From a virus: a stretch of DNA of 45,525 nt. The stretch lies in IMG/VR virus record IMGVR_UViG_3300024222_000002. One strand, written 5' to 3'. The notes under the pieces are model-generated. The model searched no databases. It worked only from the letters and a program-made list of their open reading frames with translations, and was not told the origin of the DNA. Of this stretch, positions 1-45,525 are shown piece by piece. Made by a program: the position numbers and the translations under genes. Each line of letters begins with the position of its first letter. The stretch's first letter is position 1.

Positions 1-201
1 GCGAACCTCGGAGGCGCGAACCTCGGAGGCGCGTACCTCAGAGGCGCGTACCTCGAAGGCGCGTACCTCGAAGGCGCGAACCTCAGAGGCGCGAACCTCG
101 AAGGCGCGAACCTCAGAGGCGCGAACCTCGAAGGCGCGAACCTCGAAGGCGCGAACCTCGGAGGCGCGTACCTCAGAGGCGCGAACCTCAGAGGCGCGTA
201 C
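1..201 (+). repeat. 15-bp coding tandem repeat, 13 full units (gcg[a/t]acctc[g/a][g/a]aggc)
   Basis: Counted directly: 13 units at 1..195 plus a partial 14th. Only unit positions 4, 10 and 11 vary. The same array is seen at 45404..45525. Confidence 0.95.
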
Positions 202-435
202 GGTTTGGAAAGATTCCCTCTTCAAATCGGTGGACACAAACATTGGCTCATTACTCAACAGGACGGCGAACTTTCCATTGGCTGTCACAAAGGGACTTTC
301 GATTGGTGGCTGGAACATGCCGACACCATCGGAAGAAAAGAGGATTACTCCGCACTGGATATTGAAATTTACAAGCTGCACATCGCACATTTGCAAAAGG
401 TTTCGCAGCTTTTGTGGGCAAAGGCAACCGCATGA
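1..435 (+). CDS. Pentapeptide-repeat protein, C-terminal part (gene wraps the contig junction; N-terminal part is 45308..45525)
   Basis: Frame 1 is open from base 1. It translates as 13 tandem A(N/Y)L(G/R/E)G pentapeptides followed by a 78-aa non-repeat tail ending at TGA 433..435. Bases 1..122 equal 45404..45525, in frame with GTG 45308. Confidence 0.85.
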
Positions 436-1271
436 GCGACCAGCCAGCAGCAACGCCAGAGCAGCCCAAACACCGCTTTTCAAACACAAAGAAAATCAGA
501 GAGGAAATCATGGAACTTGCCACACGCGAAGTAAAGGAAATCGAAACTGGCCTAGCCTTGCTGCGAACACGCGCTGAATCAATCGTTGTGCGCGATGCGG
601 ATTCCTATGCCGCTGCCTGCCAGATTGCCTTAGATGGACGCGCCTACATCAAGAAAGTGGGCTTCGAGCTAGACCCTGGTATTCAATCCGCCAAAGACCA
701 CATGGACTTGCTGAGGAACCAAAAGGCCAAGTTCGTAGACCCGGCCAAACAAATCGTGGAAGTAGCTGCCCAGAAAGCCGAATCCTGGAAGGCGGAAGAA
801 CGCCGAAAGGCCGAAGCCGAACAGGAACGAGTCAACGCCGAACGCCGCCGCGAAGCTGCAAGGCTGGCCGACGAGGAGCGCCGGAAAGCGGACGCTGCCG
901 CCGCTGAGCAGAAGAAGATTAGGGATGCCCAAATCGAAGAGGCTCGCAAAGCCGGAGAGATTGGGAAGCGCGAAGCTGCACGGCTAGCAAAACAGGCCGA
1001 AGAGGACCGTCTGGCCGCACAGGAGTTAGCCCGCAAACAGGAGTTAGTGGCTGCTTCTAGCGTGCAGGAGGTGAAAATAGCCCCATCTGTGCCGAAAGTT
1101 GCGGGAATAAAGGCGCGGGTGAATTGGAAGTTTCGCATTGTGGACGCCTCCAAACTCCCGCGTCAGTTCCTTATACCGGATGAGGTCGCTATCGGCCAGC
1201 ATGTTCGCTCAGTCAAACAGGCTGGGGAGGTTATCCCCGGCGTGGAGGCTTACAGTGAAGACGGCATCTAA
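432..1271 (+). CDS. Coiled-coil protein, Siphovirus Gp157-like (accessory of recombination module)
   Basis: ATG 432 overlaps the upstream TGA (ATGA). Central A/E/R/K-rich coiled coil. The C-terminal '[20 protein letters not shown]...VIPGVEAY' resembles the Sipho_Gp157 C-terminal signature. It sits directly upstream of RecT. Confidence 0.5.
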
Positions 1272-2046
1272 ATCGCTTGCAGTAGCCAAACCTCGCAGGC
1301 TCCAAAAGAACGAAGTCGAGCTTCTTAAGCGCACGGTCGCTAAGGGTGTGACCGATGATGAGTTTGCCCTATTTCTCTGGGTATGCAAGAAGCACAAGTT
1401 AGACCCGATGTGCCGACAGGTTCACGCCGTGCGCCGCTACGTCCAGAAGCACCATCAAGACGAAAAGGGCATTTGGGTGGCTGGCCATCAGATGGTGATA
1501 CAGATTGGAATAGACGGATATAGGGCGCTAGCAGGCCGTGACCACGGTGATTTTGGCGGATGCGACGAACCGGAGTTTGTCTTTGATACCGACAAGAGAA
1601 TCCCAGTATTAGCCCGTATTCGCCTTTGGAAGAAGGGATTGGAACACCCAATAGTCGGCGTGGCCTATTGGGATGAATACGCGCCACGCGACCTGACTAG
1701 GGCCGAAGCCTTTATGTGGAACAAAATGCCGAAACATATGCTGGCGAAGTGCGCCGAGGCTCTCGCTTTGCGCAAGGGATACCCTGAGTTGGCCGATATT
1801 TACACCAATGAGGAAATGTCCCAGACGATGGACGAATACGCTCCTAGCGGTCGCCAAATCGTTTCTGAGGTACATCCACAAGCAGCCATTGACGCGGAAG
1901 TGGAGCGCCAAAAGAAAGAGCACGCCGAGAACGCTAAGGCTATCGAAACGAAGGCTAAAAAGGCCAAACCCGCGAAACCCGTTGAGCCAGCTACGGTTCA
2001 AGCCGACATCTGGCCCAAACGGCAGGAAGGACCTTCGGTGCCATAA
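1255..2046 (+). CDS. recT: RecT/Bet-family single-strand annealing recombinase
   Basis: Motifs 'LLKRTVAKGVTDDEFALFLWVCKKHKLDPMCRQVHAV', 'IQIGIDGYRALAGR' and 'WNKMPKHMLAKCAEALALRKGYPE' fit the RecT/phage Bet family. Start is uncertain: GTG 1255, ATG 1201 or 1138 are all in the same frame. Confidence 0.85.
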   Translation: MKTASKSLAVAKPRRLQKNEVELLKRTVAKGVTDDEFALFLWVCKKHKLDPMCRQVHAVRRYVQKHHQDEKGIWVAGHQMVIQIGIDGYRALAGRDHGDFGGCDEPEFVFDTDKRIPVLARIRLWKKGLEHPIVGVAYWDEYAPRDLTRAEAFMWNKMPKHMLAKCAEALALRKGYPELADIYTNEEMSQTMDEYAPSGRQIVSEVHPQAAIDAEVERQKKEHAENAKAIETKAKKAKPAKPVEPATVQADIWPKRQEGPSVP

Positions 2047-3066: not shown

Positions 3067-3239
3067 GCGAAACAATCCGCCAATTGGCAGCCGATGGCAT
3101 GCTGCGCGGCTCCTACGTCACGTCTGAAGAAACTGAGCTTATCAGCCCACTACAGGTGATTCTTGAATTAGCTTGGCGGCAGGTCTTGCGAAACAACCGG
3201 CTGGAGGTCGCGCAGGCAGCTACGGAGGAATTGGGATGA
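3063..3239 (+). CDS. Hypothetical protein (58 aa)
   Basis: ATGA overlaps at both ends. Confidence 0.5.
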   Translation: MSETIRQLAADGMLRGSYVTSEETELISPLQVILELAWRQVLRNNRLEVAQAATEELG

Positions 3240-3610
3240 GCGATTGCGGAGTTTGCATCGGTTCTGAGCCGGATGGATATTGCGACTTTATCGTGCAGGA
3301 AGACCGTAAGGCGCGTAAGCCGCACAAGTGCTGCGAATGCGACAAAGAGATTGCGATAGGCGAGAAGTATGAGCATGCTCGCGGTAAGTTTGAAGGCGAG
3401 ATGTGGACTGCCGATACCTGTCTTATATGCCGAGAGATTGCCGAGACGTTCTATTGTAACGGGCGCATGTTCGGCGGAGAGCTTTGGGAAGACATGGAGT
3501 ACTGTTTCCCAGAGATGACAACTGGCTGCTTGGCACGACTGACGACGGTGGCGGCAAAAACTGAGCTTCAGCGCCGCTGGCAAGAATGGAAGTTTTCGCA
3601 AACAGCCTAG
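3236..3610 (+). CDS. Cys-rich putative zinc-binding protein (124 aa)
   Basis: 'CGVC', 'KCCECDKE' and 'CLICREI' cysteine pairs. ATGA overlap with the upstream gene. Confidence 0.6.
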   Translation: MSDCGVCIGSEPDGYCDFIVQEDRKARKPHKCCECDKEIAIGEKYEHARGKFEGEMWTADTCLICREIAETFYCNGRMFGGELWEDMEYCFPEMTTGCLARLTTVAAKTELQRRWQEWKFSQTA

Positions 3611-3658: not shown

Positions 3659-4348
3659 TTGAAACCGTATTACAGCGAAAAGGGGATAGAGATTTACTGC
3701 GGGGATTGCAGAGAGGTATTGCCCGACGTCGACGCTGATTTGCTTTGCGCTGACCCACCGTATGGACTTGGTGCGGCGCGGCTAAACTTCGGCGGAGCTG
3801 GCGTCGTGCGGCACATGACTGGCCTCTGTTCCGGGAAAGCTATTCCAAAGACGAATTATGGCGATTCCGCTTGGGATGATGAACCCTGTCCGCAAGACCT
3901 CTTAGACTTGGCGATTTCTCGAGCCCCACAGCGGATAGTTTGGGGTGGGAATTACTTTGACTTGCCGAAGGCGCGATGCTGGCTCATTTGGGACAAGCTA
4001 CGCGGGGATACTGACTACGCGGATGGAGAGATGGCGTGGACTAACTTTGACCGCGCCGTGCGCATCATTCGCTGGCGTTGGAATGGCTTCCTGCAGGAGA
4101 ACATGGAAGCCAAAGAGGAGCGCGTGCATCCCACACAGAAGCCGCTAGGCGTAATCAAATGGGCGCTGCAGCAAGCTGAGGAGTGGTCGACCGTCCTTGA
4201 CCCTTTCATGGGCAGTGGCACAACGCTTCGCGCAGCGAAAGACTTAGGCCGCCGCGCCATCGGCATAGAGATTGAGGAGCGGTACTGCGAAATCGCGGCC
4301 AAGCGGCTCTCGCAAGAAGTGCTTGACTTTTCGGCTGAGCCAAAATAA
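3659..4348 (+). CDS. DNA methyltransferase, beta-class N6-adenine/N4-cytosine (N6_N4_Mtase-like)
   Basis: Motif IV 'ADPPYG' near the N-terminus, 'HPTQKP', then motif I 'VLDPFMGSGTT'. TTG start at 3659. Confidence 0.9.
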   Translation: MKPYYSEKGIEIYCGDCREVLPDVDADLLCADPPYGLGAARLNFGGAGVVRHMTGLCSGKAIPKTNYGDSAWDDEPCPQDLLDLAISRAPQRIVWGGNYFDLPKARCWLIWDKLRGDTDYADGEMAWTNFDRAVRIIRWRWNGFLQENMEAKEERVHPTQKPLGVIKWALQQAEEWSTVLDPFMGSGTTLRAAKDLGRRAIGIEIEERYCEIAAKRLSQEVLDFSAEPK

Positions 4349-5981: not shown

Positions 5982-6547
<566 letters not shown>

Positions 6548-6551
<4 letters not shown>

Positions 6552-7604: not shown

Positions 7605-7861
7605 GGGATAAGCGCATGGACAATCGGCCTACTGCTCCGCATGAGCTTTTGCTAATCCGCGTTGGGCACCATCTTTGGCGGGAATGGAAGTCTAAGGACG
7701 CCAAGGGATGGCCAAAAGCGCCACTTTTCACCGCGCTAGAGGCTGTTTGGGAGGCAAAGGAGCAGATTCGGGTGCCGTTGCGGAAAGAATGGCTGGATTT
7801 CGTGGAGAATCGAAAAAAGAGGGGCCAAGCCCAAATAGCAAGAATCAGAGGCAAAGCATGA
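7601..7861 (+). CDS. Hypothetical protein (86 aa)
   Basis: ATGA overlaps at both ends. Confidence 0.55.
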   Translation: MRDKRMDNRPTAPHELLLIRVGHHLWREWKSKDAKGWPKAPLFTALEAVWEAKEQIRVPLRKEWLDFVENRKKRGQAQIARIRGKA

Positions 7862-8085
7862 CGCACCTTGAGCAAGAGATGTTCAAGATCATCCGCAGGC
7901 GAGACGATGACGAGCACTACGGTTATGCGGACATGGTGCGCGATATAGAAGCTCTGTTTGGGCTAACGGCGGTGAGGAACGCGGTGAGGTTGTGGAAGCT
8001 GACGGGAGACAGTGAAGGGGCAATGGCCGTAATCGAGCAGGCCCTGCGGCAGACGCAGCAGGTGGAGGGGCGGGATGCTAATTGA
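7858..8085 (+). CDS. Hypothetical protein (75 aa)
   Basis: ATGA overlap upstream. Confidence 0.55.
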   Translation: MTHLEQEMFKIIRRRDDDEHYGYADMVRDIEALFGLTAVRNAVRLWKLTGDSEGAMAVIEQALRQTQQVEGRDAN

Positions 8086-8290
8086 AATCAAAGACTGGCG
8101 AGACGACCTGCGGGTTGGCGATTTGACCTATTACAAACAGACTTTGCTGAAGGTCATAAAGGTAATCAACCATCCAGTTGGGCTTAAGCGAAAATACCGT
8201 GGCATGTCCGGCAAGACGGTAAAGTTTCGCAAGATTGGGCGTGTACGCCTAAAGCCGTATGACATTCAGGCCGCCCAGCCGCACGGCTAG
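8075..8290 (+). CDS. Hypothetical basic protein (71 aa)
   Basis: ATG ORF with an 11-nt overlap on the previous gene. Confidence 0.55.
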   Translation: MLIEIKDWRDDLRVGDLTYYKQTLLKVIKVINHPVGLKRKYRGMSGKTVKFRKIGRVRLKPYDIQAAQPHG

Positions 8291-43922: not shown

Positions 43923-44004
43923 AGTAGAGCATAAACAGAAAATCGTGTCAACCCTAAAATAGTTGAAAATAGTTCTTGACACGATTCTGAGAATATGCGA
44001 CACT
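43923..44004. promoter_or_regulatory. Divergent promoter/operator region with an 11-bp perfect inverted repeat
   Basis: aatcgtgtcaa (43941..43951) and ttgacacgatt (43976..43986). Each arm carries an outward-facing TTGACA. 17-nt spacers lead to TCTACT (- strand, 43928..43923) and GACACT (+ strand, 43999..44004). aaaatagtt occurs twice at 43956..43964 and 43966..43974. Confidence 0.55.
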
Positions 44005-44023
44005 TTGGACATTGGAGGACGTG

Positions 44024-44974: not shown

Positions 44975-45165
44975 ATCTCGAAAAACTTGCTATTGCCGAG
45001 CAGAACGCTTGGCTCCGCTATCAGGAAGCGCAGGCCATGGCTGACAGGCTCAATGCCGAGTGGAGCATTGCTTTCAGCGCATACAGAGAAGAGTTTAACG
45101 CTACGCCGATCTCGGCTTGTGAGTGGCTGAGGCGTGAAGGCGTGGACATGTGGAGGCCGGTATGA
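44971..45165 (+). CDS. Hypothetical protein (64 aa)
   Basis: ATGA overlaps at both ends. Confidence 0.55.
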   Translation: MNLEKLAIAEQNAWLRYQEAQAMADRLNAEWSIAFSAYREEFNATPISACEWLRREGVDMWRPV

Positions 45166-45311
45166 GACGCGAATCGGATGATGGATATGTCTGTGCTGCT
45201 TGCGGCGAGACGGTTTATAACGATTCTTGCGCCTGCGAAGATGGGCCGTACACGGAAGACGAATGGGATGAAGCAGAAGATATAGCTGAGCGCTTGGAGG
45301 GAAAAGAGTGA
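45162..45311 (+). CDS. Acidic Cys-containing mini-protein (49 aa; below the ORF-track cutoff)
   Basis: 'YVCAACGETVYNDSCACEDG'. ATGA upstream. Its TGA overlaps the GTG of the pentapeptide gene. Confidence 0.5.
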   Translation: MRRESDDGYVCAACGETVYNDSCACEDGPYTEDEWDEAEDIAERLEGKE

Positions 45312-45525
45312 AACGCCAAATCAAGAATCTTACCCAGTTAGTGCTGTTTGAAGCGGAAGCTGAATCTGACAAGCAATTACTAGAGAAGGCAGTAAGCGAA
45401 GGCGCGAACCTCGGAGGCGCGAACCTCGGAGGCGCGTACCTCAGAGGCGCGTACCTCGAAGGCGCGTACCTCGAAGGCGCGAACCTCAGAGGCGCGAACC
45501 TCGAAGGCGCGAACCTCAGAGGCGC
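45308..45525 (+). CDS. Pentapeptide-repeat protein, N-terminal part (continues at 1..435)
   Basis: GTG 45308 overlaps the upstream TGA. 32-aa leader '(M)KRQIKNLTQLVLFEAEAESDKQLLEKAVSEG' followed by the repeat array. Reconstructed protein is about 176 aa. Confidence 0.8.
   Translation, partial: MKRQIKNLTQLVLFEAEAESDKQLLEKAVSEGANLGGANLGGAYLRGAYLEGAYLEGANLRGANLEGANLRG
45404..45525 (+). repeat. Exact 122-bp duplicate of bases 1..122 (circular-assembly overlap or terminal redundancy)
   Basis: Compared base by base. Identical. Confidence 0.95.

Follow-up and report, generated by a model that had tools for sequence, protein, structure and literature searches.

The window analysed here is a virus contig of 45,525 nt (IMG/VR record IMGVR_UViG_3300024222_000002). 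It belongs to a tailed phage, with a large terminase and a major head protein encoded on the - strand, and RecT, an HNH endonuclease and an N6/N4 DNA methylase encoded on the + strand. Bases 45404..45525 are an exact suffix-prefix duplicate of bases 1..122. As these identical 122-bp ends indicate, the contig is a 45,403-bp circle written with an overlap. The overlap falls within the 15-bp tandem repeat of a gene encoding a small solenoid protein. When one copy of the overlap is removed, the gene is an ORF of 531 nt (45308..45525 plus 123..435) that encodes 176 aa followed by a stop codon. The protein has a 32-aa N-terminal cap (N-cap), 13 pentapeptide units, a count that may be inexact since the assembly ends lie inside the array, and a 79-aa tail. 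The features of the locus are as follows.

45150..45311 (+): upstream small ORF of 53 aa, whose TGA stop overlaps the GTG start of the solenoid gene (GTGA)
45296..45301 (+): Shine-Dalgarno-like GGAGGG, 6 nt upstream of the GTG start, read from the sequence
45308..45403 (+): GTG start and N-cap, residues 1-32 (MKRQIKNLTQLVLFEAEAESDKQLLEKAVSEG), from translation, homologue alignment and AlphaFold2
45404..45525 (+): first 8.1 repeat units, at the 3' end of the window; exact duplicate of 1..122
1..195, equal to 45404..45525 plus 123..195 (+): complete array of 13 units of 15 bp, residues 33-97, from TRF and PF00805
196..432, with the stop codon at 433..435 (+): C-terminal domain (C-domain), residues 98-176, from profile search, conservation and AlphaFold2
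432..1271 (+): downstream ORF of 279 aa with a Lys/Glu/Ala-rich middle, whose ATG overlaps the TGA stop of the solenoid gene (ATGA)
1138..2046 (+): RecT-family single-strand annealing protein, two genes downstream (PF03837, E=7.6e-21; PHROG 2780)

An earlier note on this DNA gave the protein a length of about 176 aa, which is correct. It listed the parts as 45308..45525 plus 1..435, and here the coordinates have to be changed, as the second part is 123..435. Plain joining of the window ends was rejected because the frame shifts into an ORF of ARTSE repeats; one 122-bp copy was removed instead. The start of the gene is backed by alignment to homologues beginning with MK.EIK (MK.EIKSR...LFS.E..SLKLAVE). 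The overlaps with both neighbours described in the note, GTGA with 45150..45311 and ATGA with 432..1271, are present. The gene is also seventh among small genes, as the note had it, with six small + strand ORFs preceding it from position 44012. These six ORFs have no family assignment. The last of them, 45150..45311, has no match in Pfam or PHROG, and the downstream ORF 432..1271 has none in Pfam, PHROG or NCBIfam.

The ORF spans the contig junction, and assemblies break at the array. Both facts would fit an ORF that is no real gene, arising as a by-product of the DNA tandem repeat or as an assembly artefact of the contig ends. However, the N-cap and the C-domain are kept in frame across dozens of independent contigs, and in some contigs (10-61 kb) the homologous gene is internal. 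A ribosome-binding site and overlapping start and stop codons also exist. Judged from the conservation of the ORF, this reading is effectively refuted and almost certainly wrong.

The array consists of 13 in-register units of A(N/Y)L(G/R/E)G at residues 33-97, encoded by the 15-bp unit GCG-(A/T)AC-CTC-(GGA/AGA/GAA)-GGC. TRF reports a period of 15 and 13.2 copies. The match to PF00805 reaches 94.5 bits against a gathering cut-off of 20.2 (E=2.4e-27), which is far beyond chance. The protein is thus a pentapeptide-repeat protein, as had been claimed, and a right-handed quadrilateral beta-helix is predicted for it. An AlphaFold2 model built on a seven-sequence alignment contains the N-cap, the solenoid and an alpha/beta C-terminal region. 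In the N-cap, strands 2-7 and 12-17 form a beta-hairpin followed by a helix at 21-30, with pLDDT above 90. The solenoid shows one strand residue in every five over residues 38-98 (pLDDT of about 77-88), and the predicted beta-helix comprises 3.25 coils. The AlphaFold and Foldseek check proposed in the note therefore returns a beta-helix, and every top PDB match of the model is a pentapeptide-repeat protein, with an rmsd of 0.5-0.8 A over 55-67 columns.

The array is also unusual at the DNA level. Units in the window differ from each other only at nucleotides 4, 10 and 11, and all of these differences are non-synonymous. They change only residues i-1 and i+1, which lie on the surface. Every unit of the array has the codons GCG, CTC and GGC, which are common to most lineages and whose genome-wide use is only 21%, 17% and 39%, respectively. 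Array codons are kept between lineages, whereas in the flanking domains the same codon is found at only 30-45% of identical residues. Even lineages that have reached saturation at synonymous sites in their flanks share these codons. The GC content of the unit is 73%, as against 53% for the genome. As RNA or single-stranded DNA, the array folds back into a long quasi-hairpin (-105.9 kcal/mol, z=-4.1), which would favour slippage. The fixed codons, the GC excess and the hairpin suggest conservation at the nucleotide level or exchange of arrays between phages. A role of the array as DNA, for example as replication-origin iterons, was set aside because the unit sequence is different in lineage L006.

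The 79-residue tail carries the motif PLQIxG[ST/H][RK]H ... IGC ... W ... IG ... Y[ST]..I.EY..I. A word-indexed search with this tail finds only six relatives, with 68-77% identity, all of the same three-part architecture but with arrays of only about 2-6 units. A profile built from the tails of these close relatives was searched against 1.84 billion representative proteins (E<=1e-3). It finds 498 representative clusters (50% identity), and the domain is always C-terminal. Among 100 diverse members, G126, C127, W135 and Y156 are invariant, and G110, H113, I125, G143 and Y148 are conserved in at least 92% (H113 in 92%). The tail of the window protein has every invariant residue plus H113. In the broad alignment (A3), the family is defined by the motif PLQIxG[ST]xH...IGC...W...IG...Y[ST]..I.EY following a beta-solenoid, and the window protein has this arrangement. 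With a deep alignment, AlphaFold2 models the C-domain as beta strands followed by two helices, with a pLDDT of 94.6 and a pTM of 0.84.

The earlier note could not assign the non-repeat tail, and that assessment stands for the 79 aa defined here. Neither the tail nor its profile has a credible match in Pfam, NCBIfam, PADLOC or the PDB sequences, and no solved relative of the C-domain emerges from a Foldseek search of the PDB (best E=1.1). A match of the tail to phosphoethanolamine methyltransferase (E=0.004, 34 residues) was judged to be chance. CcrM was rejected as a structural relative of the domain (E=1.1, 28 aligned columns). As far as these searches reach, the conserved part is a previously undescribed C-terminal domain of about 75 residues. 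The family is new in being defined by this domain together with a hypervariable, swappable solenoid; pentapeptide-repeat proteins as a kind are already known.

The conserved residues raise the question of whether the C-domain has a catalytic or binding role, as a small enzyme or as a module that binds a ligand or metal, with the solenoid as a mere scaffold. The site would be formed by [ST]-[RK]-H113, G126-C127 and E155. The domain would then be, for instance, a Cys/His hydrolase or transferase, a zinc site created by dimerisation, or a sponge for signalling nucleotides. Hairpin turns carry both the invariant Cys and the His that is 92% conserved, and Ser/Thr, Arg/Lys and Glu residues are conserved with them. 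Members of the close subfamily have HxH...CH at positions 111, 113, 127 and 128, and no relative of the fold has been solved. On the other hand, some 65 conserved residues are very few for an enzyme, the searches found no similarity to any catalytic family, and just two potential metal ligands are conserved family-wide. We regard an enzyme or binding module of this type as unlikely.

The family is almost confined to uncultured phages. Close relatives are absent among 185,579 bacterial and archaeal species, each represented by one genome, and the broader family type occurs in only 2 MAGs. The tail of the window protein finds nothing by tblastn in 50,697 phage genomes. The family consensus finds 3 records in this set, including a gene of a Vibrio phage. 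The broad alignment A3 was too diverse for use in the locus search. By blastn, the region 44000..45525 matches, among phages, only the repeat DNA of pentapeptide-repeat genes of Caulobacter and Ralstonia phages, and no related genome was found. A literature search for pentapeptide-repeat proteins of phages in the role of DNA mimic, anti-defence factor or RecBCD inhibitor returned no functional study. In a Listeria P100-like phage, an early operon on the long terminal repeat includes a pentapeptide-repeat gene for which no function is reported (PMC12282133). Igy and Gip, which are gyrase inhibitors of phages, do not belong to the pentapeptide-repeat proteins (PMC10886550).

The solenoid that precedes the C-domain is far less constant than the domain itself. 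We classified 155 proteins, comprising the top 150 profile matches (of the 498 clusters) plus the first six relatives. Pentapeptide repeats precede the domain in 52/155 and hexapeptide GDAxVSG repeats in 33/155. Many of the remaining proteins have other repeat types, such as GGVxW, IGExA and NSxVT, and in 24/155 the region before the domain is very short. P0165, a protein of 85 aa that is complete on 42-kb contigs, has barely one repeat unit and represents a stand-alone form. In P0015, L050 and L051, a hexapeptide solenoid is joined to a C-domain of the close subtype, to which the window protein itself belongs. Two further loci, L046 and L033, have another N-terminus (MKIKFLPWTNKPEIELANLRG...) and about 40-57 units before the same C-domain.

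Solenoid length also varies among complete close relatives, from about 2 to 37 units, and multiples of 4 are not preferred. Since the unit count is not tied to multiples of four, the N-cap and the C-domain hold no fixed orientation relative to each other, which argues that the C-domain acts on its own. The DNA of the N-cap and C-domain is 100% identical in L013 and L038, yet these loci have 2 and 9 units, and L025 and L023 have identical flanks with 5 and 9 units; such differences between assemblies could in part reflect collapse of repeats from short reads. The interior of the array is the contig end in 18/37 metagenome contigs and 3/5 IMG/VR contigs, as it is in the window. About half of the family contigs (L002, L003, L005 and 18 of the loci L017-L053) stop within the array. 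Where such contigs are called circular or direct-terminal-repeat, the call rests on repeat sequence, and this includes the 122-bp overlap of the window. In L004, at about 7850..8225 (the same locus as L041; IMG/VR contig 3300012685_000184), an in-frame stop lies between the N-cap and the array (AAV*GANLEG). Loss of the gene's function, an error in sequencing or recoding could each account for this.

Variation of this kind can also be read as a property of the DNA alone. The array would then be selfish or neutral, a slippage-prone, hairpin-forming 15-bp repeat in a small gene that tolerates it, and the role of the protein would be independent of the solenoid. The three codons that are fixed within and between lineages despite low genome use, the GC-rich unit and the strong fold-back all agree with this, and very short arrays are viable. 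However, a solenoid of some kind precedes the C-domain in most members and is of several unrelated repeat types, which suggests selection for having one. Moreover, the confinement of variation within the unit to surface positions, always by non-synonymous change, does not fit a repeat that is neutral for the protein. A selfish or neutral array is therefore rather improbable in our judgement.

The solenoid gene lies in a region of early type. It was called early-expressed in the note. Its position among small unannotated + strand genes, with the RecT and HNH genes downstream, is confirmed and is of the early type; the expression signal is not, as the promoter and terminator scan was uninformative and its one weak promoter-like site (43932..43960) is matched by shuffled sequence. 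RecT is a recurrent neighbour and is found near the homologues in L001, L004, L006, L007, L008-10, L029, L047 and L050. Nine distinct locus groups, among them distant members of the hexapeptide type, have a RecT-family gene no more than about 4 kb away. The homologues are found among small unannotated genes near helicase, HTH, RusA or SSB genes. The gene order in L006 is the solenoid protein, a small ORF, Sipho_Gp157 and RecT. By BLASTP, the window ORF 432..1271 has no similarity to the Sipho_Gp157 that stands between the solenoid gene and RecT in L006, and the two RecT proteins are too diverged to align. Orthology of the neighbouring genes was therefore rejected. The order that is shared is functional, at the level of the RecT family, and is not sequence-level synteny. 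RecT is common in early regions of phages, and the linkage could be synteny inherited among related phages.

Other genes of this region deserve mention. ORF 5982..6551 (+), of 189 aa, is a second early-region repeat gene, with a 31-copy 6-bp GGCTCC repeat at 6015..6200. It encodes a low-complexity (GS/GY)n stretch followed by a non-repeat C-terminal domain that has no Pfam match, so the phage carries another in-frame, slippage-prone repeat gene. ORF 3659..4348 (+) contains an N6/N4 DNA methyltransferase domain (PF01555, E=6.6e-22), which is matched by just the C-terminal part of the ORF, and ORF 3173..3610 may be the N-terminal part of this adjacent methyltransferase in another frame. An anti-restriction function of the phage-encoded methylase itself is possible.

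Annotation usually takes its lead from Qnr and MfpA and labels the pentapeptide-repeat genes of phages as gyrase inhibitors or DNA mimics. A mechanism of this type was also proposed for the window protein. In such a mechanism, the pentapeptide beta-helix, probably as a dimer, would mimic B-form DNA and block gyrase, a restriction or BREX component, or RecBCD. The PF00805 repeats are real, and the predicted beta-helix is of the Qnr/MfpA fold class. The gene lies in an early region near RecT, where Gam, a nuclease inhibitor, and Gam-like inhibitors sit in other phages. A further possible dimerisation element is the long helix at the C-terminus (150-175). Nevertheless, the proposal is poorly supported. 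The known DNA mimics Ocr, ArdA and MfpA are strongly acidic, whereas the solenoid here has a net charge of 0; the whole protein has a pI of 6.07 and a net charge of -3 over 176 aa, and the relatives have a pI of 6-9. Qnr and MfpA have about eight or more coils with an electronegative, DNA-like surface, as opposed to 3.25 coils here. Each coil of a pentapeptide beta-helix adds a rise of about 4.8 A, so that the 3.25 coils here cover some 16 A, which corresponds to roughly 5 bp of DNA. The 2-3 units of some relatives are too few for even one coil, and in other members different solenoid geometries stand in for the pentapeptide helix. The scores against the NCBIfam models are far under their cut-offs (Qnr, 20.2 bits against 240; MfpA, 32.5 against 360; QnrA, 22.8 against 450). 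The highly acidic surface of Ocr and ArdA, which resembles DNA phosphates, is not seen in a protein with a net charge of -3, and no Pfam, PHROG or PDB match links the protein to either family. PADLOC-DB defence models match neither the window protein nor eight family members. A solenoid of zero charge that varies in length and type does not suit a mechanism in which a rod must have the shape of DNA together with a set length and charge. DNA mimicry is thus doubtful. An anti-nuclease or anti-defence role is possible, and the recurrent RecT linkage hints at one. If such a role holds, the specificity would sit in the tail and not in DNA mimicry.

Comparison with known systems sets the window protein apart from each of them. 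MfpA, Qnr, AlbG and EfsQnr have PF00805 repeats in common with it, and the predicted helix superposes on their structures. However, they have roughly 30-40 units, compared with 13 here, and they are acidic, whereas the window protein is neutral. It lacks the loops of Qnr, it scores 20-33 bits on the Qnr and MfpA models in NCBIfam (cut-offs of 240-460), and its repeat number is not kept among its orthologues. The C-domain of 75 residues is an addition that the MfpA/Qnr-type proteins do not have. For the repeat region, the cyanobacterial Rfr proteins (Np275/276, Rfr23, Alr5209 and HetL) and designed beta1 solenoids match best in both sequence and structure. This likeness is limited to the repeats (53 bits on the Alr5209 model, against a cut-off of 125), and these proteins share neither caps nor a phage context with the window protein.

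Closer in overall plan are several phage proteins found by Foldseek against BFVD (TM 0.5-0.75), which have a solenoid followed by C-terminal beta-hairpins and two helices. Those of the Bacillus phages phiAGATE (L0LC68) and Bp8p-T have a predicted solenoid and a similar C-terminal fold. A similar predicted C-terminal fold is seen in proteins of Listeria phage LMTA-57, Staphylococcus phage Twort (ORF044) and Pseudomonas phage tabernarius. The Vibrio phage 1.081.O protein NVP1081O_188 is a tblastn match of the family. These proteins are annotated as hypothetical or by repeat type only. Their identity to the tail of the window protein is at most 28%, and several have hexapeptide or other solenoids. 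Uncharacterised PHROGs 31265, 7713 and 31567 also show likeness, the last covering window residues 77-152. T7 Ocr, ArdA, lambda Gam and Rac Lar resemble the window protein in being small early proteins, but there is no sequence or fold similarity, and the strong negative charge of Ocr and ArdA is missing. Gam and Lar adjoin the annealase gene of their phages. The solenoid gene lies near RecT in a similar manner, and this analogy is one of position only.

We favour the interpretation that the C-domain is a target-binding effector of the early recombination/replication module and that the solenoid is a variable, exchangeable extension of it. We give this interpretation a probability of about 40%. 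The architecture, the conservation, the variability of the solenoid in length and type, the restriction to phages and the RecT linkage are observed; that the domain binds a target, and which target this may be, we infer. The gene product would be a cytoplasmic accessory protein from the early replication/recombination region of the phage, built from a short N-terminal cap, a beta-solenoid and the conserved alpha/beta C-domain of about 75 residues. The C-domain would be the functional module, most likely binding a host or phage target. An anti-nuclease role is plausible from the placement beside RecT and would be analogous to that of lambda Gam or Rac Lar in role, not in structure. The pentapeptide array may serve as a stiff extension, replaceable by other kinds of solenoid, that gives bulk or reach rather than DNA mimicry. 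Its length would shift fast by in-frame slippage of the quasi-palindromic 15-bp unit. Against the effector interpretation, an enzyme or a metal site would explain the invariant Cys and near-invariant His equally well.

A bolder version, which we consider a long shot, combines these elements. The C-domain, as a new fold with a Cys/His site, would act against a host nuclease or immune component, and the solenoid would be a contingency locus. The 15-bp unit would be kept at the nucleotide level for in-frame slippage. Phage populations would hold a range of rod lengths and at times swap the solenoid type, tuning or diversifying the effector in an arms race.

The analysis bears on how such genes are annotated. 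In this family, the repeats, from which function is usually read, are the least conserved part of the protein. Repeat arrays also break short-read assemblies and split the gene across the ends of supposedly circular contigs. The work defines a widespread C-domain, nearly restricted to phages, that Pfam lacks and for which no structural relative has been solved. It is small, its model is of high confidence, and His113 and Cys127 form a candidate site. It is a useful lead for domain discovery and for the correction of annotations. If the domain is indeed an anti-nuclease or anti-defence effector, the family would be a new group of inhibitors linked to RecT modules. In that case, the in-frame changes in solenoid length would show that an early gene of a phage can have its protein length varied in a programmed way, which is unusual.
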